Below are positions 2,361 through 56,976 of a stretch of 64,000 bases of DNA, piece by piece (the stretch's first letter is position 1; each line of letters opens with the position of its first letter). Under the pieces are notes generated by a model. It did no database searches, was not told the DNA's origin, and saw only the letters and a list, made by a program, of their open reading frames with translations. Location: the sequence record MW349128.1, one strand, 5' to 3'. The position numbers and the translations under genes are program-made. The stretch comes from Staphylococcus phage Machias.

Positions 2361-3447
2361 TGAGAAACACACTGGGTCGTGTAAAACCTTTTTAATTGCT
2401 GGAACGTCCTTATTGCTTAGTGAGCTACAACGTGACTGGTAACGGTGAGCGTGATATGCTTAAAAATCATTAAGATTGGATAATCAGCAGCGAAGACTCT
2501 ATAAATCCTTTTCAAGAAAGGATGATTAATATGAATTATAAACCGAAAAATAAAAAGAAAATAACCAATGAAGATTGGAAAGAAATTGTCAAAGAATTAG
2601 GTAATGATGAATATGAAGTATTAGGAGATTACCTGGGTACAAAAAACAAAATTGAAATGAAACATAAAATATGTGGAGAGACATTTTTTATGACACCAAA
2701 TAATTTTAAAATAAGTGAAAATCGTTGTCCTATCTGTTCTATAAAGAAAGTTTCAGAAAAACGTAGGAAGAAGACAAAGGAATTAAATGAAAAAATAAAA
2801 GAAGTTCTTGATGATTCTTATGAATTTAAATTGAACGGTAATGAAACTGTTCATAATAAAATAAAAGTAAAACATAAACAATGTGGAAACGAATACAGTG
2901 TTTTAATAAGACATATAATTTATGATAAAAATAAATGTAGTAAATGTCAAGATTTTGTTAATTCAAGAGATGAAAAAGAAATAAATAAATTCCTTATAGA
3001 AATGGGCGTAGATTTCGAAAGACAATATAAATTTGAAGATGACAAAGTAAAAAATCTTAGATTTGACTTTGCAGTTTTTAAAAATAACGAAATCAAACTT
3101 ATAGAATTTGATGGTGAATTTCATTTTAAAGAAAAATTTGGTGGACCAAAAGCATTTGAGAAAGTAGTATACAATGACTATCTCAAAAATAAATTTTGTT
3201 TTGACAATAACATAAAATTACTTAGAATACCTTATTGGGAAAGTAATAATAAAAAAGAAATAATAAAAAGGTTTATAGAGTAACGTTCAACGACTATCGA
3301 AAAGTGAGCATTATGTCGAGAGGACCTATTGCAATATAACTGAGTAGAGTACACTTTTAATTAAGTGGAAAAAGAAGGGTATGTAGAGTAACGTCTATAT
3401 ACAAGATATAGTCTATCTTTCAATAAAATATATTTTATTGAAATTTG
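2361..3447 (+). mobile_element. group I intron 2 of polB (about 1.09 kb) carrying an endonuclease ORF between the Q and R elements
   Basis: P-like TTTAATTGCTGG (2391), Q-like AATCAGCAGC (2478), R GTTCAACGACTA (3288), S AGATATAGTCTATCT (3405), 3' hairpin CAATAAAATAT/ATTTTATTG. The 5' part is near-identical to the intron in the beta gene at 32400-32578 (minus strand). Boundaries are accurate to a few nt. Confidence 0.55.
2522..3283 (+). CDS. intron-encoded homing endonuclease, two zinc-ribbon modules plus an EDxHD/Vsr-like (PD-(D/E)xK-type) nuclease domain
   Basis: HKICGETF...CPICS and HKQCGNEY...CSKCQ modules; C-terminal RFDFAVF...IEFDGEFHF (E-D-x-H pattern). The alternative ATG at 2531 has better SD spacing. 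Confidence 0.55.
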   Translation: MINMNYKPKNKKKITNEDWKEIVKELGNDEYEVLGDYLGTKNKIEMKHKICGETFFMTPNNFKISENRCPICSIKKVSEKRRKKTKELNEKIKEVLDDSYEFKLNGNETVHNKIKVKHKQCGNEYSVLIRHIIYDKNKCSKCQDFVNSRDEKEINKFLIEMGVDFERQYKFEDDKVKNLRFDFAVFKNNEIKLIEFDGEFHFKEKFGGPKAFEKVVYNDYLKNKFCFDNNIKLLRIPYWESNNKKEIIKRFIE

Positions 3448-9710: not shown

Positions 9711-9721
9711 TAATTGATTTA

Positions 9722-9751
9722 ACCAAACTCTAATTAACTTTAGAGTTTGGT
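9722..9751 (+). terminator. rho-independent terminator (ACCAAACTCTAA/TTAGAGTTTGGT)
   Basis: 12-bp perfect stem followed by a T/A-rich run; overlaps a TATATTATATAAAA promoter-like motif at 9751..9764. Confidence 0.5.
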
Positions 9752-9786
9752 ATATTATATAAAAATTACTAAGGAGGAATTTAAGT

Positions 9787-10080
9787 ATGATTAATGAAGA
9801 AAATATTTTTAATGATAATTTATTAGAGAAGTTTCATTATGATAAAGATGAATTACTAAAGGTGATATTTAAAAATTGTGATGTGGTATTTGACAATATT
9901 AATGACGATGGTGAACGAAATATATATTTAATTTCTGATGCTGATATTAATGATAAATATGTACTTTCATTCTTATTAACTAAAGATGATATACCTGTAT
10001 CTTCACATAGTTTTTCTATTGAAGATATTTATGAGTTTGAAGATTTAAATAAAAAGATAATTAGAGAAATTAATTCGTAA
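9787..10080 (+). CDS. hypothetical protein (97 aa)
   Basis: RBS AAGGAGGAAT; no motifs. Confidence 0.45.
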   Translation: MINEENIFNDNLLEKFHYDKDELLKVIFKNCDVVFDNINDDGERNIYLISDADINDKYVLSFLLTKDDIPVSSHSFSIEDIYEFEDLNKKIIREINS

Positions 10081-10149
10081 AAAATTAAAAATTTATAATA
10101 ACTGATAGATATAAAATTTTAAAATTATATAGAATGGAGAATTTTCAAT

Positions 10150-10608
10150 ATGCTGAAAGTTACTAAATTAAAAGAATTAGAATACCCTAAAGAAGTTACA
10201 ATTGAGTTAAATACAGAAGATAAATACTTAAAAGAGATTAAAGATGCTTTTTTCAATTCAGAAAAAGGTACTTTTTCTATTACTAAATTAATTAATGAAA
10301 ATGTTGAAGATTATTTAAAATACTCAAAAGATGGTATTACATCTAAAGATATTTATAAATTAAATATTATTGTAGATAAAGAAGAAGATCAACAGATTAC
10401 TTTAATTAAAGCTGAAGAAAATAATCAATTCAAAGAAGGTTTATTCTATGTTGTTTCTGATATTTTATTCGGTCCTATGCCTGTATATGTTAATTTAGAA
10501 GATGAAAATGCTACATTTGATCTTTCAGGAATGTTTAAAGCTGATGGACCTGATATCTTTGAAACAATTAGCAACGTATTTTCTTCTACAATTGAAATTA
10601 ATAAATAA
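10150..10608 (+). CDS. hypothetical protein (152 aa)
   Basis: RBS ATGGAGAAT; no motifs. Confidence 0.5.
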   Translation: MLKVTKLKELEYPKEVTIELNTEDKYLKEIKDAFFNSEKGTFSITKLINENVEDYLKYSKDGITSKDIYKLNIIVDKEEDQQITLIKAEENNQFKEGLFYVVSDILFGPMPVYVNLEDENATFDLSGMFKADGPDIFETISNVFSSTIEINK

Positions 10609-10616
10609 GAAAGTAG

Positions 10617-12173
10617 TTGAAAATTATGGTAGTTTTAAATAAAACAAGAAAAATAAAAGTGTCGGTTTATCCGACACGAATTCTTGTTGAAAATTATGAA
10701 CTAGGATATTGTTCAGCAATAGAGAAATATCTATCTGTATGGGATAAAATATACTTTAAACATACGTATAAAGCTTTCGTATATAATGAAGAAGAGAAAA
10801 CTATATCGTTTCCTGCTGGAATAAATATGAAGATACTAATTCAGTCATTACAAAATCATGGAGAAGTAGATTTTCAAGATTTTAGAAAAGTAGACAATTT
10901 ATATTTTAAACCTAAAAAGAATTATGATGTAGAAATGAATTTTAAACCAAGAGATTTATTACAAAAGAAATCTATTGAATTCTTAAACGCTTTTAGTATA
11001 TATGAAGCTTCAACTCAGAAATTTTTATCACTTAAAACTGGTGAAGGTAAAACTTTTTGTGCTTTAAAAAGTGTTATTGATCGTCAGTTAGTTCCTATGA
11101 TATTTGTCAATAATAATAAACTTAAAGAACAATGGTTTGATAAGATTAAAGAATATACCAATATTGATGATGAAAGAATATATATTATTCAAGGTAAATC
11201 AAGTATTAATAAATTATTTAAAATGAAGTCTGATGAACGTAATAAAATAGATTTCTATATAGTTATGTATAAGACATTAAATTCATTTATAGAAGACGAC
11301 ATTGAAAAACTACAAGAACTAATATTTAAAACTAAAGTATCTATTAAGATATTTGATGAAGCACATTTAGACTTTAGAAGTTTAACAAATATAGATATAC
11401 AAACAGATTTACCGTCTATATATCTCTCTGCAACTCCTGAAAGATCTGATAAATCAGAGAACTTTGTATTTAATAATATATTCTTAAATGTTCCTATATT
11501 TAGATCTGACAATTATGATAAACAAATAGCTTCTAATAGAAAGATACCATCTAAATATCATGATGTGTTCATTATACGCTACAATAGTGAACCTAGTGAA
11601 ACAGAGCTAGCAGATTTTGTTTCAGCATCAAGAAGAAATGGTCTTAATGTAAATCATTACAGTAAATATCTTATAGATAAAGATGAGAGAAAAGATAAAT
11701 ATTTTGATATGATATTTAATATCATTAATGAAGTTATTATGAAAAAAGAAATAAGAAAAACTGTCGTTATGTTTAAATTGAAAAATATGATAGATGAGTT
11801 TTATTACTATTTAGAAGAAAAATTAGGTAAAGAAGGATTAGAATTTCTAAACTGTATTCGCTACTATGATGGAATTGATAAAGAAGAAAAATCTAAAGTA
11901 TTAGAATCTAATCTAATAATTACTACAGATTTATCTTTAGGAACAGGTATAGACATACCTGATCTCAAAGCTGTCATTAATACAGTTCCATTATCTTCTG
12001 AAAGTAAAGTTATACAGATAATGGGAAGATTACGCTATATTGAAAATGAAAAATTGATGTATTTTGATTTTGTCGATCATGGTTTTAAAAAACTAGTAAC
12101 GCAAGCTAATAATAGATTAAAAAATGTATTTAAGAAAAAAGCTTTAAACGTTACTGATTTTAAGTTAAAATAA
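10617..12173 (+). CDS. SF2 DEAD/DEAH-box helicase
   Basis: Motif I LKTGEGKTF, motif II IFDEAHL, motif III SATPER, motif VI QIMGRLRY. The alternative ATG at 10626 is equally plausible. Confidence 0.7.
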   Translation: MKIMVVLNKTRKIKVSVYPTRILVENYELGYCSAIEKYLSVWDKIYFKHTYKAFVYNEEEKTISFPAGINMKILIQSLQNHGEVDFQDFRKVDNLYFKPKKNYDVEMNFKPRDLLQKKSIEFLNAFSIYEASTQKFLSLKTGEGKTFCALKSVIDRQLVPMIFVNNNKLKEQWFDKIKEYTNIDDERIYIIQGKSSINKLFKMKSDERNKIDFYIVMYKTLNSFIEDDIEKLQELIFKTKVSIKIFDEAHLDFRSLTNIDIQTDLPSIYLSATPERSDKSENFVFNNIFLNVPIFRSDNYDKQIASNRKIPSKYHDVFIIRYNSEPSETELADFVSASRRNGLNVNHYSKYLIDKDERKDKYFDMIFNIINEVIMKKEIRKTVVMFKLKNMIDEFYYYLEEKLGKEGLEFLNCIRYYDGIDKEEKSKVLESNLIITTDLSLGTGIDIPDLKAVINTVPLSSESKVIQIMGRLRYIENEKLMYFDFVDHGFKKLVTQANNRLKNVFKKKALNVTDFKLK

Positions 12174-12193
12174 AGAAAGGTAGTTGAGGTATT

Positions 12194-12907
12194 GTGACAC
12201 GTATATCTCGTAAAGAGGCAATTGATAATTATCAATACCTCAACGAATTATTTATAAATGTAAGAAGAGATATTAATAAATTTCTATCAGATGAGATATT
12301 TAAAATTAATCATACTAGTTTTAAATCATCTATTATTAAAAATATTAAATCTAATTTTGATATAGTTGAAAATAAGAATAATATATCCCTTTTAATCTTA
12401 AACAAATTTATTGAATTTGATATTTACGAAGGTATTATATTCTTATATGACTTAGAAGAGAATATTGAATTTTTAAAAGAATCAATTAATAATCAAATAA
12501 ATATATTAGAAAATAAAATAGACACTAGAAAAAATACTATCGAAATTATGAATAGAAATAATAAAAAATATAATAGAGAATTAGAAGATAAGAATAATGA
12601 ATTAATTGAAAAAATTAAACTAGGTTCTTTATCTAATGCATTATTAAATCTAGTAGGTATGGATAATTCATTTAAAATTAAAAAAGAAATAAATGAATTA
12701 AAAGAGAGAATCTATAGTAATGAAGAGTTATTAGATAAGAATAATAAAGAATTAAACTCACTTCAAAAAGAAAAAGATACAATTAGTAAATATGACTTCA
12801 GATTTGCTAATAAAGATTTCATTATCAATAAGATAAATGGTTTCTTACAGTATTTTAGAAATGAATATGGTTTTGAATTTTACATTAAATATGAAGGTAG
12901 GTTATAA
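12194..12907 (+). CDS. hypothetical coiled-coil protein (237 aa), GTG start
   Basis: Heptad-rich K/E/N sequence; no enzymatic motifs. Confidence 0.45.
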   Translation: MTRISRKEAIDNYQYLNELFINVRRDINKFLSDEIFKINHTSFKSSIIKNIKSNFDIVENKNNISLLILNKFIEFDIYEGIIFLYDLEENIEFLKESINNQINILENKIDTRKNTIEIMNRNNKKYNRELEDKNNELIEKIKLGSLSNALLNLVGMDNSFKIKKEINELKERIYSNEELLDKNNKELNSLQKEKDTISKYDFRFANKDFIINKINGFLQYFRNEYGFEFYIKYEGRL

Positions 12908-12909
12908 GA

Positions 12910-13515
12910 TTGATAGAATTTGAAGAAAAATTGCCAGCGTTAAATATAATAGTTTCTGCAGTAACTACTTCACCTAAAACTAATACTGAATTTATCAATA
13001 TGACATTTATGGTAGATAGTCCTAAATTTAAAGACTTGTATTTAGAATTCTCAGATATAGATCTAAATGAAGTATTTAAAAATGAAATGCTTAAGGATGC
13101 ATATGAAAAAGGTCAATTGTCTGAATATACTAAGATTGATAAAACGTTAGATGATTATAACTTGAGATTAATTAAAGATGATACAGTTATTCAAGTTCAA
13201 CGTATTAGAGATTATTTTGAAGGTCTTTCTGAATATGCAGATAAATTAGTTTTCTGGATAGATGAAATAACTTTATGGAGTCAATTAATTGAATTGGTAT
13301 ACGGTGGATCTTCAGATAACACTTATGAATTTCCTTCATATATTGATTTCCAACCTATTGATGTGAAATCAGTAGTAAGAATGTCTAGTATTAAAGATGG
13401 TGATTATTCTTATGCAGAAGAATTAATGGGAACAAATGAATCTATGACTGATTCCTCATTATCAATTGCATCATTATTATTGTCATTCATTAAGAAAGCA
13501 AAAATTTTAGATTAA
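12910..13515 (+). CDS. hypothetical protein (201 aa)
   Basis: Translationally coupled to the upstream ORF; no motifs. Confidence 0.45.
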   Translation: MIEFEEKLPALNIIVSAVTTSPKTNTEFINMTFMVDSPKFKDLYLEFSDIDLNEVFKNEMLKDAYEKGQLSEYTKIDKTLDDYNLRLIKDDTVIQVQRIRDYFEGLSEYADKLVFWIDEITLWSQLIELVYGGSSDNTYEFPSYIDFQPIDVKSVVRMSSIKDGDYSYAEELMGTNESMTDSSLSIASLLLSFIKKAKILD

Positions 13516-13517
13516 AA

Positions 13518-13540
13518 ATTTAAATATATATTATATAAAA
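13518..13540 (+). promoter_or_regulatory. early-type promoter-like motif TTTAAATATATATTATATAAAA
   Basis: Best copy of the recurring 20-mer family; 41 nt upstream of the 13581 start. Confidence 0.45.
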
Positions 13541-13580
13541 GTAGTAATACAAAAATTATTTTATTAGGAGAGATTTTATT

Positions 13581-14786
13581 ATGTTAACAAATTTCAAAGA
13601 CCATCTATACCGAGGACAAAATGTTTCAGTTTCAATTTACACACTATTTGCTAGAAAGAATAAAAACACTGGTAATGCTATTAATGGTGAATATATCAAT
13701 ACTTATAAATCAAGTCAATATAACAATATTCCATTTTTAAGTGAAATTGAAAATAACGGTAATCATTATATTTCATTCTCTTACAGTAAATTTCAACAAG
13801 GTCAAGCACCTATCTCAGAGGATGTATTAATTAGTTATCCACATTTACAAGAATTTAATAATTTCTTAAAAGCTACTTACAAGAGTATTGGTGAAAACTT
13901 TAATAGTATTTTCCAAAATAATCAAGTAACTGCTGAGTATCAAAATCATATTTGGCAATCACCTAGTTTAGTTTCAGGTAAAGGTATTGCTTTCGCTCCA
14001 ACTACAATTGTTAATAAACGTACTAATTCAACTGAAATTGGTTTTGCTATTATTGTAAATGATAATAATAAATATGATTTCATTTCAGCAAATGCTTTTA
14101 TTAGTTTAGTTAATTTATTAGTTAGAATTACTAATGATCCTTTAACATTTAGAAATCAATGTGTACAAGCTGAAATGCAAGCTAAAGAAATTGAGAATAA
14201 TCAATTACTTAAAGGATTATTAAGAGCACAAGGTTTACCAACTGATATGTCTAATCACCATATGGATGAGAAAGCTTCATACAATAATGCTCCAAGACAA
14301 CAAAATAACTCAGGTGGATTTAATCAACAAAATAATGGTTTTGGAAATTTCGGTAACAATAATGGAGGATTCAATCAACAACAGAATAATGCTCCTCAAC
14401 AATCAAATAACCAATTTGGTAATTTTAATCAACCTCAACAACAGCAACAATCAAATCCAAATCCTTTCGGTAATGTAAATAATACACCACAAAATCAACA
14501 ACAAAGTACTCCGGAAAATCCTTTTGGTGCAGTGGATAATATTTCTGATGACGATTTACCTTTTGCTGATAAAACAGAAACTAACAATCAACAAGATGAT
14601 AGACAAATTGATAAATCTACAATGTTTAAAGATGCAGATGTTAATAAAGAATCTGGATCTATGGAAGACTTATCAAATAATGTAAATGAAGAAAATGGTG
14701 AAGATCAAGGTAGATCACAATCATTATTAGATAAATTTACAAGTAAAAGTAAAGAATTAGATAAAGATGACGATTTAGGAATTTAA
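13581..14786 (+). CDS. hypothetical protein with Q/N/G-rich prion-like linker and SSB-like acidic DDDLPF motif
   Basis: About 230 aa of ordered N-terminus, then NNSGGFNQQNNGFGNFGNNNGGFNQQQNNAPQQSNNQFGNFNQPQQQQQSNPNPFGN, then ISDDDLPFADK, with C-terminal ...DKDDDLGI. Confidence 0.5.
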   Translation: MLTNFKDHLYRGQNVSVSIYTLFARKNKNTGNAINGEYINTYKSSQYNNIPFLSEIENNGNHYISFSYSKFQQGQAPISEDVLISYPHLQEFNNFLKATYKSIGENFNSIFQNNQVTAEYQNHIWQSPSLVSGKGIAFAPTTIVNKRTNSTEIGFAIIVNDNNKYDFISANAFISLVNLLVRITNDPLTFRNQCVQAEMQAKEIENNQLLKGLLRAQGLPTDMSNHHMDEKASYNNAPRQQNNSGGFNQQNNGFGNFGNNNGGFNQQQNNAPQQSNNQFGNFNQPQQQQQSNPNPFGNVNNTPQNQQQSTPENPFGAVDNISDDDLPFADKTETNNQQDDRQIDKSTMFKDADVNKESGSMEDLSNNVNEENGEDQGRSQSLLDKFTSKSKELDKDDDLGI

Positions 14787-14793
14787 TAAATAA

Positions 14794-14823
14794 GGTATAA
14801 TGTGATTAATTTCACATTATACC
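14794..14823 (+). terminator. terminator hairpin GGTATAATGTGA/TCACATTATACC
   Basis: 12-bp perfect inverted repeat plus an AT run. Confidence 0.45.
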
Positions 14824-14866
14824 AATATTATATTTATTTTTTATATACTGTAAGGAGATTATGTAA

Positions 14867-15715
14867 ATGAAAAACAATAGAGACGTTTCAGATGAATTAG
14901 AAAGAATTATATCTAATGTAGACGAAGTTGATGTTAAATCAGTATTTAAAGATGTCAGATATACTGAATTAAATGATGAAATGGAAGATCAAGAAGAGCA
15001 ATCAAATTCTTCAAAATATCATGGTAGTATACAAGGAATTGTTACTAAAGAAGAATATGATAAATTACCTTATTTAGGTAAAAAGGTAATCCAATTTATG
15101 GAAAATATTGTAGGCGATAAAGAAGGAATGACTTTCGAAGAATATTTTGAAAGATATGCTAAAGTATATGGTGAAGGTGAAATCGATTCATTTAAAAACA
15201 CTATGTATAGATTAAAGAGTAGTAAAGTATTTACTATACATTCATTAATTAGTATTTGTGAAGTAATCGGATATAAAGTTTCATTAGTTTCAGAAGAATT
15301 TAAAGATAAAGATGAATTAACTTTATATAATCCTAAAAGAAAAACTAAGACATCTAAATTTTCAGGTAAACTAGGATTTAAATTAATGCCGGATGTTTTA
15401 TATGAAGAATATATATTAGAATTTGTGGATTTCTTAGAAATATTAGGTAATGAAGGTTATACATTTGAAATGTTATTTGGTGAGCTAGAAAAGAATTCAG
15501 ATGAAGTTAATGTAGTAAGTAAATTAAAATCATCTTTAGATAAAATGATCAAACAAGGAAAATTAACTTGGAAGACTATGGAAACAGTCATCAATTCTTT
15601 AGGAATGAATTTAAAAATAGAATTCATTAAAGAAACAATAGATACAGATGAGATAAATAAAATGGATGCAAGTAATAAAATAGAACTTTCTGATGATGAT
15701 ATTATTAGAGGTTAA
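14867..15715 (+). CDS. hypothetical protein (282 aa)
   Basis: RBS TAAGGAGAT; no motifs. Confidence 0.5.
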   Translation: MKNNRDVSDELERIISNVDEVDVKSVFKDVRYTELNDEMEDQEEQSNSSKYHGSIQGIVTKEEYDKLPYLGKKVIQFMENIVGDKEGMTFEEYFERYAKVYGEGEIDSFKNTMYRLKSSKVFTIHSLISICEVIGYKVSLVSEEFKDKDELTLYNPKRKTKTSKFSGKLGFKLMPDVLYEEYILEFVDFLEILGNEGYTFEMLFGELEKNSDEVNVVSKLKSSLDKMIKQGKLTWKTMETVINSLGMNLKIEFIKETIDTDEINKMDASNKIELSDDDIIRG

Positions 15716-15723
15716 AAATATAA

Positions 15724-15755
15724 TCCCCAATACCTATTAATTTAGGTATTGGGGA
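15724..15755. terminator. bidirectional terminator, conserved hairpin family (TCCCCAATACCT...AGGTATTGGGGA)
   Basis: Between convergent genes (15715 end on plus, 15773 end on minus); T-runs on both sides. Confidence 0.6.
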
Positions 15756-15772
15756 AATTTTATTATTTTTTT

Positions 15773-17692
15773 TTATTCTAAAGATCCTTCATCAGTTGAC
15801 TCTGGAGATTCTTCTACTTGTGATGTAGAAATATTAACATTAATATCTTTACTTACACTATCAGAAACAACTTTAACTTTAGAAGTTCCTTCAGCTTTAG
15901 CAGTTACAAGACCGTTATTGTCAACTGAAGCAAATTCAGATCCTTCAGTAATAGAGTAACTTACAGGGTTTCCTTTAGGATCTGTAGTTACTGTTAATTG
16001 TTGAGTTTCATTATCTTTCATATCAACACTATCAGGAGTAACTGTTAGACTTTTAGTCTTTACTCTAGTTACATTAACGCTAACTGTCTTACTTACACTA
16101 TCAGAAACAACCTTAACTTTAGCAGTTCCTACAGCTTTAGCAGTTACAAGACCACTACTATTAACTGAAGCAAATTCAGATCCTTCAGTAATAGAATAGT
16201 TTACAGGGTTTCCTTTAGGATCTGTAGTTACTGTTAATTTTTGAGTTGATTCTGCATCTATGTTAATTGTTTGTGGATTAACATTTATGCTTTTAGTCTT
16301 TACTCTAGTTACATTAACATTAACTGTCTTACTAATAGAATCAGAACTTACTTTAATTTTAGCAGTTCCTACAGCTTTAGCAGTTACAAGACCGTTATTG
16401 TCAACTGAAACGTATTCAGAGCCTTCAGTAATAGAATAATTTACAGTATTTGTAGATGGTTGAATTTTAACGTCTAACTGTTGATATGATTCTGCATCTA
16501 TGTTAACTTCTTCTGGAGTAACAGTTAGACTTTTAGTCTTTAAACGACTTACATTAACCTTTACATCTTTAGAAACATTATCTGATTTAACTGTAACAGT
16601 TGCAGTTCCTTCAGAAATACCAGTAATATTTCCTTTATTATCTAATGAAGCAAATTCAGAACCGTCTTTTAATTCAAAGCTTACTTTTCTTCCTTCAGGT
16701 TCAGTAGTAACTTCTAATTGTTGAGTTCCTTCAGCTTCAATATTAACTGTTTCTGGAGTAACATTTATACTTTTAGTTTGATTAATGCTTTCAAATTTTC
16801 CATCTTTAGGATTATAAACAGAATATTCAAGTTTTTTATCAATTTCTTTTTGTGCAGTTTCTTCACTTAAAATACGTACATTAAAGTTAATGATATTGTC
16901 TTGAATGTTTCTTTCAATAACTTTAACAACTATTTTTCCTTCTTTACTATAGAAGAATAAGCGATTTTTATTACGTTCAAATTTAGCAAAGCTAGTATCA
17001 CTAACTTCAACTGATAATAATTGTAATAAATTCTCTTTACTTATAGGAGTTACTTCTTTAGAATCAAAGTCTTTATATCCTACAATTTTCTCTAAAGGTA
17101 ATACAGATTCTTTATATACATTAATATCTTGTTGTAATTGAACAAGACGACCTGTAATTTTACCATATTCTTTTACTTGAATAAATACTTCATCATGTAC
17201 TCTTTCAAAAAGATCTTTATGACCTTCAGAAATAGCAATGTCATAATTTTCATCTGCATCTTCAGGGAAGTATAATCTTAATTTGTATTCTTCATCAATT
17301 TCAAGATCAGAAGTAGGTATACTTAATATTTCATTTTTAATATCTTTAACATTATGTGTACTTACAACTGTTTTATCAGATAATTTGATTAAATCAAATT
17401 TAAGTAAACCAAATACATCACGAGCATCAACAGGATTTACATAGAAAGGAACATTAATAAATTTATCTTGTTCTCCTTCAGTTTTGAAATAAATAGTACG
17501 TCTATCATATTTAATTTTTCCAGTTTCAGGTAAAGGTGTAACATCAGTAATAGTCCAACCAGCTTGTTTTAAACTAGCTAAATCACTACCAGAAAGAATA
17601 ACATTTTCTCTAGGACCGTATTCTTTATAACCTAAAAATGGAATTATTTTTTCGTCTAATACTTTCACTTTATAAAAGTTAGTAGTTGCCAT
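15773..17692 (-). CDS. virion-type protein with four tandem bacterial Ig-like (Big_2-like) domains
   Basis: Four repeats of about 85 aa, TVTPEEVNIDAESxQQLxVTTxPxxNxVxYSITEGSEFASVxxxGLVTAKAVGTAKxKVxSDSxSKTVxVNVT. Confidence 0.6.
   Translation of the reverse strand: MATTNFYKVKVLDEKIIPFLGYKEYGPRENVILSGSDLASLKQAGWTITDVTPLPETGKIKYDRRTIYFKTEGEQDKFINVPFYVNPVDARDVFGLLKFDLIKLSDKTVVSTHNVKDIKNEILSIPTSDLEIDEEYKLRLYFPEDADENYDIAISEGHKDLFERVHDEVFIQVKEYGKITGRLVQLQQDINVYKESVLPLEKIVGYKDFDSKEVTPISKENLLQLLSVEVSDTSFAKFERNKNRLFFYSKEGKIVVKVIERNIQDNIINFNVRILSEETAQKEIDKKLEYSVYNPKDGKFESINQTKSINVTPETVNIEAEGTQQLEVTTEPEGRKVSFELKDGSEFASLDNKGNITGISEGTATVTVKSDNVSKDVKVNVSRLKTKSLTVTPEEVNIDAESYQQLDVKIQPSTNTVNYSITEGSEYVSVDNNGLVTAKAVGTAKIKVSSDSISKTVNVNVTRVKTKSINVNPQTINIDAESTQKLTVTTDPKGNPVNYSITEGSEFASVNSSGLVTAKAVGTAKVKVVSDSVSKTVSVNVTRVKTKSLTVTPDSVDMKDNETQQLTVTTDPKGNPVSYSITEGSEFASVDNNGLVTAKAEGTSKVKVVSDSVSKDINVNISTSQVEESPESTDEGSLE
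15830..16780. repeat. tandem repeats of about 255 bp (encode the Ig-like repeats)
   Basis: Near-identical stretches, e.g. CTTACTTACACTATCAGAAACAAC(T/C)TTAACTTTAG... recurring with about 255 bp period. Confidence 0.5.
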
Positions 17693-17712
17693 TATCAGTT
17701 AAACTTCCTTTC

Positions 17713-18237
17713 TTATTTTGAGTTTTCTTTTAATAATTCAATTAAATCTTTTTTACGTGCATTATTTGGATATTCAATGCCTTTTGAATCTAATTCATCT
17801 TTAAGTTCAGCAACAGTGAATTCATTTAAATCTTCTTCACTAATTTCTGATTCTTCTTTAGAATTATCTTCTTGAGGTTCATCTACTTTTTCATCAACTG
17901 ACTGTTCTTCATTACTTCCTTCAGAAACTTCGCTCTCTTCTTTGCTTTCTGAAGAGTCGCTTTCCTCATCTTTCTTTGTCTCAACTGTTGTATCATTATT
18001 TTCTTCAACATTGACTTCTTCATTCTTTTCAGCTTTTTCTTCTTTTTTATTATCTTTATCACTAGGATATTCATAATCTTCATCCACTACTGTTACTTGT
18101 AAACCTAAACGTCTATATAAACGAATTTGAGATCCTGTAGCAATAAATGGTTTAACAAAAGGTCCTTTACCTTTACCAGGAACAAATGCTTTTTCATTAA
18201 TAATAATGAAATTATTATCTTCATTGAAATTTAACAT
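17713..18237 (-). CDS. small acidic protein sharing an N-terminal PxKGxGPxxKPF module with the 22034..23188 fiber-like protein
   Basis: N-terminus FVPGKGKGPFVKPFIATGSQIRLYRRL...DEDYEYP matches YIPNKGMGPINKPFYVDKDILKLYDLM...TEYDYVD of the 22034..23188 ORF. Confidence 0.45.
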   Translation of the reverse strand: MLNFNEDNNFIIINEKAFVPGKGKGPFVKPFIATGSQIRLYRRLGLQVTVVDEDYEYPSDKDNKKEEKAEKNEEVNVEENNDTTVETKKDEESDSSESKEESEVSEGSNEEQSVDEKVDEPQEDNSKEESEISEEDLNEFTVAELKDELDSKGIEYPNNARKKDLIELLKENSK

Positions 18238-18287
18238 ATAATTTTCTTTCCTTTCATCTTTATTATTTTATTATATAAAAAAGTTAA

Positions 18288-18312
18288 AAAGGGATTTTAT
18301 AAAAATCCCTTT
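18288..18312 (-). terminator. terminator hairpin AAAGGGATTT/AAATCCCTTT
   Basis: Perfect 10-bp stem; T-run on the minus strand follows the stop of the CHAP hydrolase gene. Confidence 0.5.
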
Positions 18313-18322
18313 AAGAACTTAA

Positions 18323-19120
18323 TTAACTAAATGTACCCCATGCAGCACCAATACGTTGTCCTTTACCATTTGATTTACCAATTGGTACATAAACATATTG
18401 ACCTTTAAAGTTACCTGATACCCAAATATGTCCATCGAAATCTTGAATTTCATCATATTTAATAGTATCACCTTTCTTCATAAATGGACCTTGAGCCCAT
18501 CCAGTCCATGGACCATTTTTACGAGTAATAATTCCTGAAGAAACATTACATGTGAATTTAGCTTTTTCAGTTTTCCATAGAATACCTGCTGAGTTGCGTT
18601 TCCAAGTATTAGTTGTAGACGCTTTCTTAGGAGCTGCTTTCTTAACTACTTTTTTCTTAGGAGCCGCTTTCTTAGGAGTTGCTTTCTTAGTAGCTGTACT
18701 ACCAAAAGCTGGACGAATTACTCCCCAGAAACCTGTATAATCATGAAATACTTTAGCTGCCGGTGAACCGTTACTTCCTGCATTAAACCAGTTTTGGTCA
18801 ACTGAATAGAAGTTATTTAAGTTAGCTGAAGTAATAATACCTGTATGACCATAAACATCATAAGGTGCATAAGCCCAAATAGCAATATCACCAGGTTGAG
18901 GTAAGAATGATGGAGTATTTTTAATTAATTTCCATCCAGCTGGCATTGTGTTGTCTTTAAGATTAATTGCATTACCCCAAGGACGGAAAGAACCACCTGA
19001 GATGTAATTACAGTAACCTATAGTTAAATCCATACACTGAGCTCCATACCAACCATCAAAATCTAGTCTACGACCAATGCGGTTGTTAACCCAATCAAGA
19101 GCTTGAGTTTTTGTTTTCAT
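18323..19120 (-). CDS. peptidoglycan hydrolase, CHAP domain plus C-terminal SH3b (SH3_5) cell-wall binding domain
   Basis: CHAP Cys/His context (GWYGAQCMDL...YGHTGIIT); SH3b-like WKRNSAGILWKTEKAKF...GHIWVSG...YVYVPIG. Confidence 0.75.
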   Translation of the reverse strand: MKTKTQALDWVNNRIGRRLDFDGWYGAQCMDLTIGYCNYISGGSFRPWGNAINLKDNTMPAGWKLIKNTPSFLPQPGDIAIWAYAPYDVYGHTGIITSANLNNFYSVDQNWFNAGSNGSPAAKVFHDYTGFWGVIRPAFGSTATKKATPKKAAPKKKVVKKAAPKKASTTNTWKRNSAGILWKTEKAKFTCNVSSGIITRKNGPWTGWAQGPFMKKGDTIKYDEIQDFDGHIWVSGNFKGQYVYVPIGKSNGKGQRIGAAWGTFS

Positions 19121-19191
19121 ATAGAATTCAAATCCTTTCTTTATTCCATTTTATATATTTATAATAACCTGTTCTTCTATTAAAGAAATAA

Positions 19192-19220
19192 GTCCTAACG
19201 CTCTATATGAACGTTAGGAC
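19192..19220 (-). terminator. terminator hairpin GTCCTAACG/CGTTAGGAC
   Basis: 9-bp perfect stem downstream (minus sense) of the amidase gene stop. Confidence 0.4.
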
Positions 19221-19235
19221 AATTAAATTAATAAA

Positions 19236-20198
19236 TTAACTAAATGTACCCCATGCTGGCCCTACACGTTTACCATTTCCTGTTGATTTACCAACCGGTA
19301 CATAAACATATTGACCTTTAAAGTTACCTGATACCCAAATATAACCATCAAAATCTTGAATTTCATCATATTTAATAGTATCTCCTTTAGCCATAAATGG
19401 ACCTTGCGGCCATCCAGTCCATGGACCACCTTTACGAGTTTTAATACCTACTGAAACACCACATTTAAATGTAGCTTTTTCAGTTTTCCATAGAATACCT
19501 GCAGAATTACGTTTCCAAGTTTTAGAAGTTACAGTTGAAGTTTTAGCTGGTTTAGCTGGAGCTTTCTTAGCAACTTCTTCTTTAGTAGCAACTTTAGTTG
19601 TTTTACTGTCTTTTGCAGTCGAAGTAACACCAGATTTCATATAAGCTAATACTTTTTTATCTACATTAGAAACACTACGAGACATACCGCACGCAGCTAA
19701 TAAGTTACCTGGATCTTGTTTATCTGCCTGAATATCTTGATGTCCAGGCATATTTGTGCTAGCGTTAATCTTATATGTTTTACATAAATAAGCTAATACA
19801 CGACAGTAATTATCAAATGATTTTAATGAACGATTACGGTCTGAGAAGTAACATCCTTCTACACCGATAGCACCGTCATTAGCATCAATACCGTACCAAG
19901 AGTTATCAGTTGGTGTATTGTACATAACATGCCAAGCTTTTTCATCTAAAGGAACACAAATAATGCATTCTTTATCGTCAACAAAGATATGAGCTGATGC
20001 TGTGTAGTTCCAATCGATATTATATGAATTACGATAGTAATCAACATTATTTTGAGCCGTTGTATTCGGGTTTCCTGTGTCATGAGCAACAATAAATTTA
20101 GGTCCGTTAAGCTTATCTCCAGCTCTACGAGTACCTATTGGTAAAAAATCAGTATATACAGGAACACCGTTCCATGTACCGATATGTTTTTTAGCCAT
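19236..20198 (-). CDS. N-acetylmuramoyl-L-alanine amidase (amidase_2/PGRP-like) plus C-terminal SH3b domain
   Basis: N-terminal amidase_2-like H...T...D/H pattern (FIVAHDTGNPNTTAQNNVDYY...MPGHQDIQADKQDPG). C-terminal SH3b is about 85% identical at DNA level to that of the 18323..19120 hydrolase. Confidence 0.75.
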   Translation of the reverse strand: MAKKHIGTWNGVPVYTDFLPIGTRRAGDKLNGPKFIVAHDTGNPNTTAQNNVDYYRNSYNIDWNYTASAHIFVDDKECIICVPLDEKAWHVMYNTPTDNSWYGIDANDGAIGVEGCYFSDRNRSLKSFDNYCRVLAYLCKTYKINASTNMPGHQDIQADKQDPGNLLAACGMSRSVSNVDKKVLAYMKSGVTSTAKDSKTTKVATKEEVAKKAPAKPAKTSTVTSKTWKRNSAGILWKTEKATFKCGVSVGIKTRKGGPWTGWPQGPFMAKGDTIKYDEIQDFDGYIWVSGNFKGQYVYVPVGKSTGNGKRVGPAWGTFS

Positions 20199-23188: not shown

Positions 23189-23359
23189 AAGGTTTCTCCT
23201 ACTTTCTGTTTAAATTTTTTCAAATAAATCCCCCTAATACACTTTATAAATCGATGATTGTCTCTTATTTTTAAATTGGCTCATCGTTTAGTAATGTATT
23301 AGGGTATTTATTCAAAACAGCGAAAAATAATTAATATTATATAATAATGTTATAAAATT

Positions 23360-26668: not shown

Positions 26669-27667
26669 ATGAGGGAAGATACTATGTTAGAGATGAAAGA
26701 ATATGAAATAGATTTTGTTAAAGAATCAATTTCTTTTTATGAAGTAATTAATGAAGAAGAATCTTCAAATAAAAATAAAAAGAGTGTATTAGAAAAGATT
26801 AAGAAAATGCTTTTAAAAATTAAAAATTTCTTAGTAAATATTTATAAGAAATTCAAGAAATTTATAGTTAATCTAATTAATAAAATTAAAGATTATTCTA
26901 AGAAAGAGGAAGCATATATAGCTGAAATAGATAAAGTTAAAAAAGAAAATGAAAAAATTAAAAAAGCAAATTCAAGTAATTATATTATTCATGCTTCAGA
27001 GAAAAAAGAAATTAATGATAAAATAATGTCTAAGAAAAAAGCTTTAAGTGAAATTAAAATAAGAGATGGTTATGAAGGATTAATCGAAAAAGGTAATATA
27101 GGATTATTAAAAGAACTTTATACATTAACTGAAATTAAATATTTCTTTATGTCATTAAAAGGTGAAGTTGATATAAACAGTTCAGAAAAAGAAGTTAAAA
27201 AAAGTGTAAAACACTTAGATGAATTAATATCTGATTATAGAAATTATAAGAGTTCTTTAAAAACTATTTCAGCTGAAGAAGCAATTAATGAAACTAATGC
27301 TAGTGATATTAAATATTATAGTATGAAAAAAATTGATAGCTTCACAAATGAATTAAAATTATTCTCTAAAGATATGGATAAAATTTATAAAGAAGTTGAA
27401 GGAGAACTTAATGAGGATTTAGAAAGAGCAGAGTATTGTATTAAAGCAGTTAAGAATCCAGAATCAATTATAACTAAAGAAGACATAGATGAACTTAATA
27501 TGTTTATTGCATCAAATAGAAAGAAATTAACTTATATTAATTTCTTAAATACTGAGATTTCTTATATTATTCCTACAATTGTAACTGAAAGAAAAAATAT
27601 TCTTAAAGCAGTCAAACTAGGTATAGAAATTGAAACGTTACAAAATAAATTAAAATTAATTAAATAA
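26669..27667 (+). CDS. hypothetical protein, member of a four-gene paralog family (N-terminal ...K(K/E)FFxKIxxAxxEAxKKFxTFFV motif)
   Basis: MLEMKEYEIDFVKESISFYEV...KKMLLKIKNFLVNIYKKFKKFIVNL shares the motif with the 54489, 55486 and 56114 ORFs. Confidence 0.5.
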   Translation: MREDTMLEMKEYEIDFVKESISFYEVINEEESSNKNKKSVLEKIKKMLLKIKNFLVNIYKKFKKFIVNLINKIKDYSKKEEAYIAEIDKVKKENEKIKKANSSNYIIHASEKKEINDKIMSKKKALSEIKIRDGYEGLIEKGNIGLLKELYTLTEIKYFFMSLKGEVDINSSEKEVKKSVKHLDELISDYRNYKSSLKTISAEEAINETNASDIKYYSMKKIDSFTNELKLFSKDMDKIYKEVEGELNEDLERAEYCIKAVKNPESIITKEDIDELNMFIASNRKKLTYINFLNTEISYIIPTIVTERKNILKAVKLGIEIETLQNKLKLIK

Positions 27668-27674: not shown

Positions 27675-27706
27675 ATCCCAATACCTATTAATTTAGGTAT
27701 TGGGAT
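27675..27706. terminator. bidirectional terminator, conserved hairpin family (ATCCCAATACCT...AGGTATTGGGAT)
   Basis: Between convergent genes 26669..27667 (plus) and 27712..28302 (minus). Confidence 0.6.
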
Positions 27707-29422: not shown

Positions 29423-29451
29423 ATCCCAATGATCAATATAATCATTGGGAT
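29423..29451 (-). terminator. terminator, hairpin family variant (ATCCCAATGAT...ATCATTGGGAT)
   Basis: 11-bp perfect stem directly after the stop (29459) of the beta-like gene. Confidence 0.5.
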
Positions 29452-29458: not shown

Positions 29459-32400
29459 TTAAATCATATCTTTTACTTTACGTTTTAATTCTATTAAAGC
29501 TTTATTTGTGAATAGCATCATATAAATATCAACTGTCATACGAGAGACAATACTTAATGGAGAGAATACAGCTTCGATTTCCTCATCAGGTCTATATTCC
29601 GCATAAGGAGATTCATTTGGAGGAGTTACATCAGCAACTACAGTTTTACAAGCTCCATAGAAACTAATTTTATCTCCAACACTCATATCATCTTCATACT
29701 CAGTGAAGATTTCAATAAGAACTCCATCAACTTTTTCTCCTTTAATTTTCTCTGTATTAATTTTATCAACTGCAGCGATATCTACATCAATACCAGGTAA
29801 AGTTTCTTTATTATTTTTAATTCCAGATTTATACTCTTTATATTTATCATTTGATTTTTTAATGTAATTATTAACTAATTTAGCTAAACTATCAGTCATA
29901 TTTTCAATATCATCATTATAATAAATATTAATCTTTTTAATATTACCTGTATATTTACTTCTAACAGCTCGGTTAGCTATATCTTGAATATCTTGTTCAA
30001 ATTCACTACCAATTTTATCTAATAAAGAACCAATACCTTCTTCATCGAATGAAGTTTCAAATATCATTAAAGGATCTCCTGTACGTACTTTCTGACCTTC
30101 TTTAACTATATATTGAATATTTGTGTTTGATGGAATATTTACTGTTTTCTTCATAGTAACTTTAGTAGACATTGCTTCAGACATACTACTAGAAATAATA
30201 GAACTATCTTCATAAGTCATTTATATTAGCTATTATATTTTTATAATAGATTAGACTATATCAAATTCATTAGTATTAATGAATAATCATATTTAGTCGT
30301 TGAACTCTATAAATGTAGAGATGCTGATTAATTTAATATTTCTCAGCAATTAATAATTTTTTGACATTACATTACTATAATGAAAGGCATTTATAATACC
30401 ATATGAGCTAGCTACAGATACTTTAGATAATTTACCTGAAGTGAATTGAATATCATTATTTTTACCAGATCCAGCAAAGAAATTATTATTTTTAGCAAGT
30501 ATTTGACCTTTATTAAAAGTGTCATCTACATTAAATTGTGGATCAAGTTTATTAGATTGATAAAAACCTGAGTTAGAGTTTTTGGCTAATTTTTCAGATA
30601 TATCAACAATATCTTTTTCACCATTGATATATTCCACTGTCATTAAACCAGTTTTCTCGTTAATTTTTAATACTTTACCATCTTGTTTAGCTTTAAAAGC
30701 AAATGTATCTGATAATTGATAAGCTAAAGATTTATCAACACCAGATCCAACTAATGGTTTACTATTAGTTTTTGTTGGAATTACGTGCTTGGCTTGAGTC
30801 AGATTATCTTAATACACTTTGTTTATTGTGTATTAGTTCTTAATGAACTTCTTTAAAATAAATTAAAGCTGAGACTATATCAAATACCATTTAGGTATAA
30901 TCTTATTTAGTCGTTGAACAATTTGATTGATGCTGATTAATTTAATTATTATTTTCTCAGCAATTAAAGATTTTTCTATTATTATATTACTATAATAAAG
31001 GGCATTCATATACCAGTCATTCCTATACGTGGACTATCTGCATGTTTTGAGCTGAATGGGTTGAGCAATTCTAATGGAGTGTATAGAGATGTATCACTCG
31101 CATCTTTCTTACCGCCATCTGTATAACCTCTAGTGGATTTAATTAGTGAATCATATGAAAGCTGTCTGACCACTCCTCAAATATCTTCAATAATGGGCGT
31201 TAACCATTACCAGTTCTCTTATGAACTTCTTTAGGATTTCCCTAAAAGTTGAGACTATATCAAATACCATCAATTAATGGTATAGTTCTTTTTCCACTCA
31301 CTTGAGTGTACTCTACTTCATCAAATATATCTTTGAAATAATTTTTATTAAAATCAGTGTAATAATCTTTTTCATTTAATATTTTTTTATTTCTTATAAT
31401 GAGTATATTTGATTTTTCGATAGTCGTTGAACTATTTAAAATATCATGAAAGTTATCTAAAAAGAAATTGATATTATTTTTATTTATACGAATTAAAGTT
31501 AAATTATTTTTTAAACAAAAGTCATTTTTTATGTGGTCTTTTAGTGCATTTTCTTTGACATTTTCTAATTTTTGATATTTAGAATTATTTCTATACTTAA
31601 AATGTTGAACCCCATCAAATTCCAAAAGTATATTTTCGTTATTTAATGTAAATAAGAAATCAAATCTAAATCTATTAGTATTTTTAGAATAATAAAAATC
31701 ATTAAAAGACTTTTCTCTTTCATAATTTATATTATTTTCATCAAAGAATTTTCTAATTGATATTTCACCATTAGACTTAATAGCACAAATAGGACATCTG
31801 TGCCCTGCACTTACAAAACTGTTTGCACGCATCTCAAATACTTTACCACACTTATGATGTAATATTTTCATTTTAGTGAATAGATTAGTATATGTTTGTC
31901 CATCAATAAGAGAGTATTCATTTTTGCCTAAATATTCTATTTCTTTTTTAAAACTTTCAATTGTTCTTTTTTTTATATTTAGAACATTTAGGACACTTCT
32001 TATAATATAACAAATTATTTGGAGTGGATTTAAATGTTTCATTGCATAGTGTATGTCTAAAATTTATTTTTATTTTACTCCCTTTATATCTTTCTAAAGG
32101 TATAAACAAATCATAGATATTCTCATTTTTTAAACTATAAATAAAATCTTCATGATTTTTATTTATACCGCCTACACATTTGACACATTTATTTTTTCCT
32201 TCAAACATTTGTTTAGGTTTTCGTTTAAATTTAAAACCACAATTATGTTTTAAATTTATTTCAGTATCATAGTCTACGTATTCTTCATAAAAAATTTCGT
32301 ATTCTTTAAATTTCTCATAATTATCATTTACTTTCTTTTTAAAACTTTCTTTATCAATTTTTCTCACATTATCACCCCAGATTATAATAAAATTATGTTA

Positions 32401-38554: not shown

Positions 38555-38584
38555 TCCCAATATCTAATTTAATAGATATTGGGA
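38555..38584 (+). terminator. terminator, conserved hairpin family (TCCCAATATCT...AGATATTGGGA)
   Basis: 11-bp stem plus T-run after the tRNA region; a preceding AACCCTAACCT/AGGTTAGGGTT hairpin lies at about 38472..38527. Confidence 0.5.
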
Positions 38585-40889: not shown

Positions 40890-40919
40890 TCCCCTAACCT
40901 AAATTAATAGGTTAGGGGA
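40890..40919. terminator. bidirectional terminator, conserved hairpin family (TCCCCTAACCT...AGGTTAGGGGA)
   Basis: Between convergent genes 38674..40878 and 40936..41628. Confidence 0.6.
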
Positions 40920-45798: not shown

Positions 45799-45830
45799 TC
45801 CCCAATACCTAAATTAATAGGTATTGGGGA
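45799..45830. terminator. bidirectional terminator, conserved hairpin family (TCCCCAATACCT...AGGTATTGGGGA)
   Basis: Between convergent genes; long T-run. Confidence 0.6.
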
Positions 45831-55294: not shown

Positions 55295-55327
55295 TGACCT
55301 AATACCTTTAAATTGGGTATTAGGTCA
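55295..55327 (+). terminator. terminator (GACCTAATACC...GGTATTAGGTC), related to the conserved hairpin family
   Basis: 11-bp stem plus TATATTTTTAT. Confidence 0.5.
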
Positions 55328-55485
55328 ATATATTTTTATAAGAAAGGGGTATTAAAATTTTATTATCTAATAAAAATTATAAGGAAGATATTCTTAAAGA
55401 AGAAATTAATATAGTTAATGAATCAATATTATTTAATGAAAATATAAATTCTTTAAACGAATCCCCTGTTGGTAATTTCTTTGAA

Positions 55486-56113: not shown

Positions 56114-56935
56114 ATGATTGAAAATATCAGTATTGAAGAAAGTTTTTTAAATGAAGAATTAGAAATCGTTACAGAAGCAATTTCTATGAATGAAGCAGTT
56201 CAAGAAGTTGTTAAAGATAAGAAAGATTCTAATATTAAGAAAACAGTTAAAAAATTAAAAGAATTCTTTGTTAAGATTGTTAGAGCAATCCAAGAAGCTA
56301 TGAAAAAATTCTCTACTTTCTTTGTAGCAAATTTTGGTAAAGTGACTAAATTACATGATTTAGCTGCAACAGTTCTAGCTAAACTTAAAAAAGATAAAAA
56401 ATTAATTGCAGATTTTGTCGCATCTAGAGCAGAAATGAAGATACCTGTTGGTAAATTAGCTAAATCAGAAAATTATAAAAAATTAGCTGATTTAAGAAAT
56501 AAGATCTATTCAGATGATTTTGACAAAGAATACGGTGAATTAAGAAGTAACAGTGCGAGTGAAGCAGATGATCGCATCGCTTTAGGTAATTTAGCAAATG
56601 TTGAAACATTATTGAAACAAAGTGAACAACTTGTAAAATTCTCTAAAGAATCTGCTAGATCATGTAAACAATTAAAAGATGATATCCAAAAAGATAGTAA
56701 AACTGCTATTAGTGAAATCAAAGAATTAGAAAAAGGAAAAACTGACAGAAAAGAAAAAATAAACGAACAAAAAACTTACGTTACTAGAGCAAATAAACTA
56801 TTCAGTATGAATCGTCAAGCTTCAACACAATTCTTAAAACAAGACTACATTCTAAGTAACATTATTGTTAACTTTGGCGTAAGTGTAAAATTAGTAGAAA
56901 CTGAAAATGCTCAAAGAAATAAAGCGTTTCAATAA
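56114..56935 (+). CDS. paralog family member (closest to the 54489..55280 product)
   Basis: IEESFLNEELEIVTEA...KKLKEFFVKIVRAIQEAMKKFSTFFVANFGK. Confidence 0.5.
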   Translation: MIENISIEESFLNEELEIVTEAISMNEAVQEVVKDKKDSNIKKTVKKLKEFFVKIVRAIQEAMKKFSTFFVANFGKVTKLHDLAATVLAKLKKDKKLIADFVASRAEMKIPVGKLAKSENYKKLADLRNKIYSDDFDKEYGELRSNSASEADDRIALGNLANVETLLKQSEQLVKFSKESARSCKQLKDDIQKDSKTAISEIKELEKGKTDRKEKINEQKTYVTRANKLFSMNRQASTQFLKQDYILSNIIVNFGVSVKLVETENAQRNKAFQ

Positions 56936-56940: not shown

Positions 56941-56976
56941 ATCCCAATACCTTTAATTAAAATTAGGTATTGGGAT
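56941..56976. terminator. bidirectional terminator, conserved hairpin family (ATCCCAATACCT...AGGTATTGGGAT)
   Basis: Between convergent genes; overlaps the last codons of the minus-strand gene. Confidence 0.55.

Follow-up and report, generated by a model that had tools for sequence, protein, structure and literature searches.

A family of sequence-related, terminator-type hairpins at convergent gene junctions of Staphylococcus phage Machias and its jumbo phage relatives

Introduction

Conserved intergenic repeats that combine a promoter with a stem-loop, termed PeSL cassettes, are found in T4-type phages; the stem-loop terminates transcription, and the copies recombine and reshape the genome (PMC2839356, PMC4122927). 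The cassettes have a sigma-70-type early promoter at the core and are clustered in hyperplastic regions beside ORFans, where they give rise to indels, replacements and mini-circles (PMC2839356, PMC4122927). PeSL cassettes are the closest precedent for the hairpin repeat described here, termed family A, which is a variant of the kind and not a member of it. Repetition is common to both, and so, by prediction for family A, are terminator function and recombination between copies. Family A, however, is a promoter-less, perfect and two-way palindrome located at conserved convergent junctions, it is found in phages with their own multisubunit RNA polymerases, and the rearrangement associated with it is an inversion. 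No promoter motif is present in the convergent-junction repeats, and only the copy at 38555 is followed by one (Table 1).

REP/BIME and MITE elements are likewise short GC-containing palindromes that are found intergenically, often at operon ends, and that can act as terminators, mRNA stabilisers or recombination sites (PMC3184786). These elements are mobilised by transposases and their presence or absence at a given site is polymorphic, whereas family A copies are fixed in position.

The related Bacillus jumbo phage AR9 encodes the same two polymerase types as the phages studied here and has long-stem hairpins at operon ends, and RNA-seq displays strong termination at the predicted terminators there (PMC5312081). 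In the 50 kb of AR9 examined, however, the stems are mutually unrelated, the loops are mostly 4 nt and no family is found.

Ordinary intrinsic bidirectional terminators also consist of a stem-loop past the stop codon, with an A-tract before it and a U-tract after it, between convergent genes. Such terminators share shape only, whereas the ~22-25 copies of family A in a genome share stem, loop and flanks, and differ further in their long perfect stems of 12-17 bp, hexaloop and interrupted U-tracts. In chloroplast non-coding DNA, hairpin loops flip between close relatives by arm recombination or template switching. Loop flips of a similar type are described below, here in the predicted terminators of a phage genome.

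Genomes compared

The window, i.e., the whole stretch of DNA analysed, comprises 64,000 nt of Staphylococcus phage Machias and has a G + C content of 25%. The relatives of Machias are AR9/PBS1-like jumbo phages that, according to the genome annotations, encode both a virion and a non-virion multisubunit RNA polymerase. Identity to the window is 97% for vB_StaM_PB50 (PB50), ~92% for AH12 and ~81% for S6, MarsHill, Madawaska, PALS_2, SA1, LY01 and DC4. Complete genomes were compared for PB50 and MarsHill, and 50-kb syntenic stretches for S6, SA1 and LY01, together with 90 kb of Listeria phage LPJP1. Stretches of 50 kb each from AR9 and from Staphylococcus phage K served as controls.

The hairpin family in the window

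Family A is represented in the window by nine hairpins and one long-loop variant (Table 1). The nine are those cited in the initial annotation, and each is present at its position with the stem ascribed to it. A further site, described there as a degenerate variant at ~23236..23310, does have a family-like outer stem, but this belongs to a longer, composite hairpin. The 5′ arm reads [A/T]TCCC(C)AATACCTA or a close variant, the stems are perfect over 12-17 bp and the loops are mostly 6 nt, TTAATT or AATTAA. The copies include the CCCAATACC type and the CCCTAACC type.

Table 1. Positions of the family A hairpins and the related composite hairpin in the window
Position	Strand	Stem and loop	Flanking genes	Remarks
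15724..15755		TCCCCAATACCTA-ttaatt-TAGGTATTGGGGA	convergent; between the stops of 14867..15715 (+) and 15773..17692 (-)	within a ~62 bp repeat, ~15713-15775: TAAAAATATAA-hairpin-AATTTTATTATTTTTTTTT
27675..27706		ATCCCAATACCTA-ttaatt	convergent, 27667/27712	MarsHill ortholog (153195) has co-directional genes on either side
29423..29451	-	variant ATCCCAATGAT-caatata	co-directional minus-strand genes on either side	predicted to be a one-way terminator; orthologs have stems CCCAATG or CCCTAACCA
38555..38584	+	variant TCCCAATATCTA-atttaa	downstream of tRNA cluster 37434-38039	early-promoter motif 38605-38618 begins 21 nt downstream
40890..40919		sub-variant TCCCCTAACCTA-aattaa	convergent, 40878/40936	flanks same as at 15724 and 45799; SA1 ortholog CCCCTAATACTA
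45799..45830		TCCCCAATACCTA-aattaa	convergent, 45790/45850	one of the two breakpoints of the 23-kb inversion
55295..55328	+	family-A-like TGACCTAATACC-tttaaattg	co-directional plus-strand genes on either side	MarsHill ortholog GGACCTAATAC
56941..56976		ATCCCAATACCT, 12-nt loop	convergent, 56935/56963; 3′ arm overlaps the stop of the minus-strand gene	MarsHill: same stem, different loop
59515..59547		variant ATCCCATACACTC-aattata	convergent, 59498/59568; the minus-strand one encodes the specificity subunit of the non-virion RNA polymerase	stem kept in MarsHill
23223..23312	-	composite; outer stem CCCUAAUACA/UGUAUUAGGG family-like, second stem-loop inside	co-directional minus-strand genes	-30.7 kcal/mol, z -6.4

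When up to one mismatch is allowed, the sequence CCCAATACCT is found 14 times in the window, compared with 1.43 ± 1.08 times in shuffled controls, none of which (0/100) reached 14. Twelve of these 14 matches fall in the 10.7% of the window that lies outside open reading frame calls. A count against shuffled controls had been proposed in the initial annotation, and its outcome upholds the claim made there that the terminator-type hairpins form a single sequence family, well in excess of chance.

All six convergent junctions of the window have a family A copy, and main use as a two-way terminator of convergent genes, as had been suggested, is what these positions predict. The copies at 29423, 38555 and 55295 and the variant at 23223 are between co-directional genes. 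The copies are at a distance of 2-20 nt from stop codons. Predicted RNA folding energies are between -16.5 and -27 kcal/mol (z -3.6 to -8), and this holds for either strand of those copies that were folded in both directions; the six copies at convergent junctions give -17.8 to -27 kcal/mol on both strands, with the same range of z. The copy at 15724 was also called terminator-like on both strands by a scanner run over positions 1-20000. A-rich and T-rich flanks are found on either side of the hairpins as first described, but not the contiguous T-runs: the T-rich tails on both sides are interrupted and often begin 2-4 nt past the stem, and the minus-strand tail of 56941 is weak. At 15724, 40890 and 45799 similarity extends over ~62 bp and comprises a TAA stop, AAATATAA, the hairpin, AATTTTATTATTTTTTTTT and the stop of the opposing gene.

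Among 12 distinct stems, standard pairs are formed in 144 of 144 cases, compared with an average of 101 in column shuffles, and at least two pair types occur at 9 of the 12 positions; as the stems were preselected as hairpins, perfect pairing is partly built in and the count mainly displays that variants differ by paired changes. Pairs were counted by a script on a gap-free register, since MAFFT alignments misplaced the 3′ arms of the shorter variants. A known RNA family was ruled out, as no hairpin has an Rfam match at gathering score: the search of the window returned three tRNAs only, and the best scores around 15724 were 13-28 bits against cut-offs of 43-175.

Orthologous sites and exchange between copies

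Every copy in the window that can be anchored by its flanks in other genomes has a hairpin there too, and no empty site was found. The sites are therefore old and do not represent recent insertions of a mobile element. At 27675, 55295, 56941 and 59515 the stem is the same or nearly so despite a divergence of ~20% in the flanks.

The initial annotation had considered the spread of a small repeat element. The part of this proposal that stands is that the copies are paralogous and exchange sequence; the insertion of a mobile unit does not, as positions are the same in six genomes. A miniature element of the REP or MITE type entering intergenic DNA would account for many near-identical short palindromes with a purely intergenic location. 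Nevertheless, with a hairpin at every anchored orthologous position, neither terminal repeats nor target duplications seen around the copies, no transposase annotated in PB50 or MarsHill (only homing endonucleases) and no copies in host genomes in a scan of one genome per species, this origin is highly improbable and, with the copies fixed in position, largely refuted.

Stems at orthologous sites are not constant. The stem at 15724 and 45799 is CCCCAATACCTA in the window and PB50 and CCCCTAACCTTA in MarsHill, S6, SA1 and LY01. Exchanges of this type replace the whole variant, both arms together, and at least three stem sub-variants that differ at four or more positions replace one another at orthologous sites. 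Within the lineage of the window and PB50, the hairpins at 15724, 45799 and PB50 174202 share an identical 32-nt sequence and the same flanks, and the MarsHill ortholog of PB50 174202 is CCCCTAATACTA. Intergenic arm counts of three variants are 23, 4 and 4 in PB50 and 12, 14 and 10 in MarsHill. Paralogs are closer to one another than to their orthologs, which is the signature that concerted evolution by gene conversion would leave.

The loops also change as units. At 40890 (AATTAA/TTAATT) and at 59515 (AATTATA/TATAATT) the window and PB50 have the loop in opposite orientations, as do MarsHill and S6 at the ortholog of 45799. Exchange between the two arms of a hairpin can invert a loop, and point mutation cannot.

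Gene content next to the hairpins was compared as well. In the window and PB50 an extra plus-strand gene, 26669..27667, runs into the 27675 hairpin; it enters this predicted terminator from the opposite side, so that a one-way junction becomes a convergent one. This gene and 56114..56935 adjoin family hairpins and have no DNA match at the syntenic MarsHill position in a DNA-level comparison, and both gene indels have a family copy on one side only. The product of 26669..27667 has a weak match, under the Pfam cut-off, to a phiKZ internal head protein. Gene replacement at hairpins was considered for the genes to the left of 40890 and 55295, which are without DNA match in MarsHill, and was rejected, since their proteins are still 36% and 49% identical, respectively, to diverged MarsHill orthologs. 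Nor are family A copies the sites of the larger indels between the window and PB50, which lie elsewhere; one small indel adjoins an unrelated hairpin at 706.

The 23-kb inversion

Over their whole length, the genomes of PB50 and MarsHill depart from collinearity only through an inversion (PB50 174192-197401) and a small translocation. Both ends of the inversion map to hairpins, one at PB50 174202 and one at PB50 197357 (window 45799), and the flanks swap partners exactly there. The two copies are identical over the hairpin and ~10 and ~20 nt of flank and are in inverted orientation, which is what homologous recombination needs to invert a segment. One arrangement is found in the window, PB50 and AH12 and the other in PALS_2, S6, SA1, LY01, DC4, Madawaska and MarsHill; these seven genomes split at window position 45786, which is the start of the repeat. 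An inversion between two-way terminators would keep operons intact, however, and selection alone would favour such breakpoints; as a viable inversion has to break outside operons, convergent junctions are in part the expected sites even if the hairpins do not recombine. The inversion is therefore suggestive of recombination between copies and is not proof of it.

The translocation, the only other break in collinearity, is a segment of ~1.3 kb with a glycosyltransferase gene (PB50 144456-145794, MarsHill 247159-248497).

It is conceivable that the palindromes act mainly as DNA, as recombination, cruciform or nuclease-entry sites in recombination-dependent replication or programmed rearrangement, with termination secondary. 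The loop flips, the switching of sub-variants and an inversion bounded by two copies are in keeping with such a role, and a UvsX-like recombinase, a RusA resolvase and SbcCD/Mre11-like proteins are phage-encoded according to annotation. On the other hand, the copies are placed strictly just past stop codons together with A/T tracts and do not occur in coding DNA, the loop has a strand bias at one-way sites (see below) that fits a role in RNA, and with one large rearrangement among ten genomes recombination looks like a by-product. A primarily DNA-level function is thus rather improbable. A packaging or partition motif, which had also been put forward, finds no support; there are ~22-25 copies, and nearly all are directly after stop codons.

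Distribution among phages

PB50 has ~22-25 family A members, all intergenic except for three weak matches inside genes. A member is present at ~12 of 13 real convergent junctions in PB50 and at ~10 of 13 in MarsHill. Gene-internal hairpins with an alignment score of at least 7 against the family consensus number zero in the window, three in PB50 and zero in MarsHill. At score 8, the fraction of strong hairpins assigned to the family is 8/23 in the window, 5/15 in S6, 6/10 in SA1 and 6/15 in LY01, and, besides the window, five genomes of Staphylococcus jumbo phages have family A hairpins at the orthologous positions. The initial annotation had tied its proposal to the fate of the stem in related genomes; the stem is present in these and confined to gene ends, which leaves the proposal standing.

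In LPJP1, 6 of 26 strong hairpins reach score 8, and the similarity is looser; the TTAATT loop recurs there, as do stems of a related type, CCC[A/T]A[A/T]A.... One family-like hairpin of LPJP1 (MZ422438), CTCCCATAACCTA-aattaa, is located at a convergent junction. Further family-like hairpins are AACCCAATAGATAT and TTCCCTAATACAAGA, and a GAGGTAA-like one is AGGTAACGATCA-ttaatt; the sites are ~91913-91983 of the record (20004-20043 of one sampled stretch) and 4585, 11545, 21192 and 41029 in the numbering of a second stretch. When a 1151-bp query was compared with LPJP1, the hairpin module was the sole stretch that matched at the DNA level. The family A and GAGGTAA-like themes may predate the split between the Staphylococcus and Listeria jumbo phages.

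None of the strong hairpins in the 50-kb samples of AR9 (0/19) and phage K (0/15) belongs to family A at score 8. A scan for CCCAATACCT-N4-14-AGGTATTGGG in one genome each of 185,579 bacterial and archaeal species returned 35 singletons, all of them outside Staphylococcus and in unrelated taxa, which rules out a host origin of the family. An IMG/VR scan returned seven singletons in unrelated contigs with different flanks. The GenBank record of MarsHill labels family A sites as terminators on both strands; the MarsHill, DC4 and SA1 papers mention neither a terminator or hairpin repeat nor the inversion.

Small terminator sequence families are not unique to jumbo phages: in the first 50 kb of phage K (KF766114) the stem CACCTAT...ATAGGTG is found in 3 of 20 annotated terminators, at 12672, 13644 and 32909.

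Loop conservation and recognition by a factor

Loops of 6 nt are present in 36 of 93 intergenic hairpins of PB50, compared with 16 of 144 hairpins inside genes. The hexaloop is more conserved than the stems among paralogous terminators. Unrelated stems that share an A-T-closed TTAAYT hexaloop on the transcribed strand are found at window 9722-9751, 14794-14823 and 51561-51584 and at many PB50 sites. In one-way contexts the loop TTAANT is on the transcribed strand in a ratio of 13:1 in PB50 and 12:3 in MarsHill, and at convergent junctions both orientations are found. The combination of frequent flips with a one-way strand bias points to selection at the RNA level.

An energy model offers a source of this bias. 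UUAAUU is 0.9 kcal/mol more stable than AAUUAA (27665, 45790), and the conserved loop positions are 1 and 6, both U, with position 5 varying; the bias can thus result from the bonus for a U-U first mismatch. It fits a terminator better than a protein site, and the constant UAA core is left unexplained by it.

The initial annotation also raised recognition of the hairpin sequence by a factor, for example as a signal for the polymerases that the phage encodes. In that case the hairpin would be, at the RNA or the DNA level, a sequence-specific signal read by a phage-encoded factor, either a termination or 3′-end signal for the virion or non-virion RNA polymerase or the site of an RNA-stabilising or processing protein, and the CCC base of the stem, the upper ACC and the hexaloop would be conserved through contact. 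Family A, the GAGGTAATGA stem of the early region and the TTAANT loop do recur across sites with unrelated stems and across the Staphylococcus jumbo phages, and more loosely in LPJP1, where the hairpin module alone has retained a DNA match; the 13:1 and 12:3 ratios reflect strand-specific selection, and phage K terminators have stems of about half the length. AR9, however, has homologous polymerases and yet, in the 50 kb sampled, unrelated stems, no family and mostly tetraloops. Furthermore, at least three sub-variants four or more stem positions apart interchange at orthologous sites, loops at convergent sites occur both ways and flip freely, the U-U bonus accounts for the loop bias, a CCC base beside the U-tract is needed by any intrinsic terminator, and no candidate factor has been identified. 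This evidence speaks against recognition by a factor, and the proposal as a whole, contacts and candidates included, is doubtful.

A narrower form, in which a factor limited to this Staphylococcus/Listeria jumbo phage lineage recognises the sequence of both stem families and of the UUAAYU hexaloop, is also unlikely, and slightly more so. The signal might be one for polymerase termination or 3′-end formation; alternatively, a protein that binds the hairpin might determine where mRNAs end and how stable they are. If true, it would be the first sequence-defined termination signal for the virion/non-virion class of RNA polymerase.

Early promoters and a second hairpin family

Motifs of the AR9 early-promoter type (AAATATATATTAT-6N-G) are found at 13522, 38605, 41730, 58318 and 61386, upstream of operons that end at family A copies. 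A division in which family A marks late operons and a family B early ones was ruled out by these operons. The opposing genes at the copies include lysins and structural genes, so one and the same element would probably be required to stop both types of phage polymerase.

PB50 also has another hairpin family, GAGGTAATGACA-loop-TGTCATTACCTC, with ~20 copies in the all-minus-strand region at 50-155 kb; examples in PB50 are 95874, 103061, 125226, 140165 and 251097, and it is not found in the window. One sub-type reads AAATATATATTAT-AAAAAT-G and matches the AR9 early promoter, with the +1 G as the first base of the hairpin. Early transcripts would therefore have a conserved 12-bp stem-loop at their very 5′ end, ahead of the ribosome-binding site. 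From its layout this 5′ stem-loop looks like a putative 5′-end stabiliser; AR9 early promoters are without such a hairpin.

The same GAGGTAATGA stem is also found as a terminator, in which case the loop is TTAATT or TTAACT and a T-run is present, in PB50 at 51617, 85987, 130165, 137993 and 273542 and in MarsHill at 42623 and 93048. Two or three of these are at convergent junctions. As the stem is present at both types of site, one stem family appears to have two roles.

At window 41730-41776 an early-promoter motif, AAATATATATTATA, is followed directly, near the predicted +1, by the hairpin TGAAGTACTA-attggctaa-TAGTATTTCA. The layout is the same as that of the PB50 leader hairpins, but the stem is unrelated.

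Proposed function and evolution of the family

The reading that we consider probable is that family A consists of paralogous, two-way, factor-independent terminators that are kept alike by common descent and by recombination between copies. Each copy is a perfect palindrome of 12-17 bp with a C-run at its base, close behind a stop codon, and has an A-rich tract on one side and a T-rich one on the other. RNA made from either strand would thus carry the same stem and a U-rich tail, and these are expected to stop and release the polymerase. The phage would place one copy at essentially every head-on meeting of operons and others at some one-way operon ends. That the hairpins terminate transcription, and which polymerase they stop, we infer from structure and position, and by analogy with the operon-end terminators of AR9.

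The shared sequence could have two sources. One is common ancestry, with a perfect stem that would tolerate few changes. The other is recombination of the copies as DNA, together with their A/T flanks of ~10 and ~20 nt, by gene conversion or by template switching within and between palindromes. The predicted outcome is homogenised copies in each lineage, flipped loops and an occasional genome rearrangement between two copies. The switching of sub-variants, the loop flips, the inversion breakpoints and the recombinase, resolvase and SbcCD/Mre11-like proteins of the phage favour this second source.

Two observations count against this explanation. The U-tracts are broken up and frequently set in 2-4 nt past the stem, unlike those of the host-type terminators of phage K, a phage that relies on the host polymerase, in which stems of 6-9 bp, about half the length of family A stems, are followed by T7-8. 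In addition, the conservation of sequence, as seen in the LPJP1 stems and in the occurrence of the loop on unrelated stems, exceeds what drift and conversion obviously predict.

Concerted evolution, loop flips and the inversion bounded by two copies are new points of the present analysis. The family provides a testable consensus for two-way transcription ends in jumbo phages with their own multisubunit RNA polymerases, and suggests that terminators can evolve in concert, much as a small multigene family does. Through it, a 23-kb inversion that sets phage lineages apart is linked to a pair of copies of a ~60-bp regulatory repeat, and the view of regulatory cassettes as joints for recombination, known from T4-type phages, is carried over to AR9-like jumbo phages. 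The hairpin repeat and the inversion may be of use to genome annotators and phage engineers.

Other features of the window

Relative to PB50, the window has insertions of ~1.0 and ~1.6 kb at 2405-3446 and 30976-32601, in the DNA polymerase and virion RNA polymerase beta regions, respectively. The open reading frames within them, 2522..3283 and 31260..32042, are without Pfam match. These insertions are probably of the intron or homing-endonuclease type, which is common in these genes of related phages.

The cluster at 37434-38039 has an early-promoter-like motif before it, at 37409, and is closed by the family hairpin at 38555. Rfam detects three tRNAs in it, one of which is 103 nt in length (37937-38039); ARAGORN detects two and gives an odd two-base anticodon call for 37434-37505.

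Gene 15773..17692, which adjoins the 15724 hairpin, contains a tandem repeat at 15833-16777 (240 bp × 3.9 copies, 76% matches) that encodes four Big_2 Ig-like domains.
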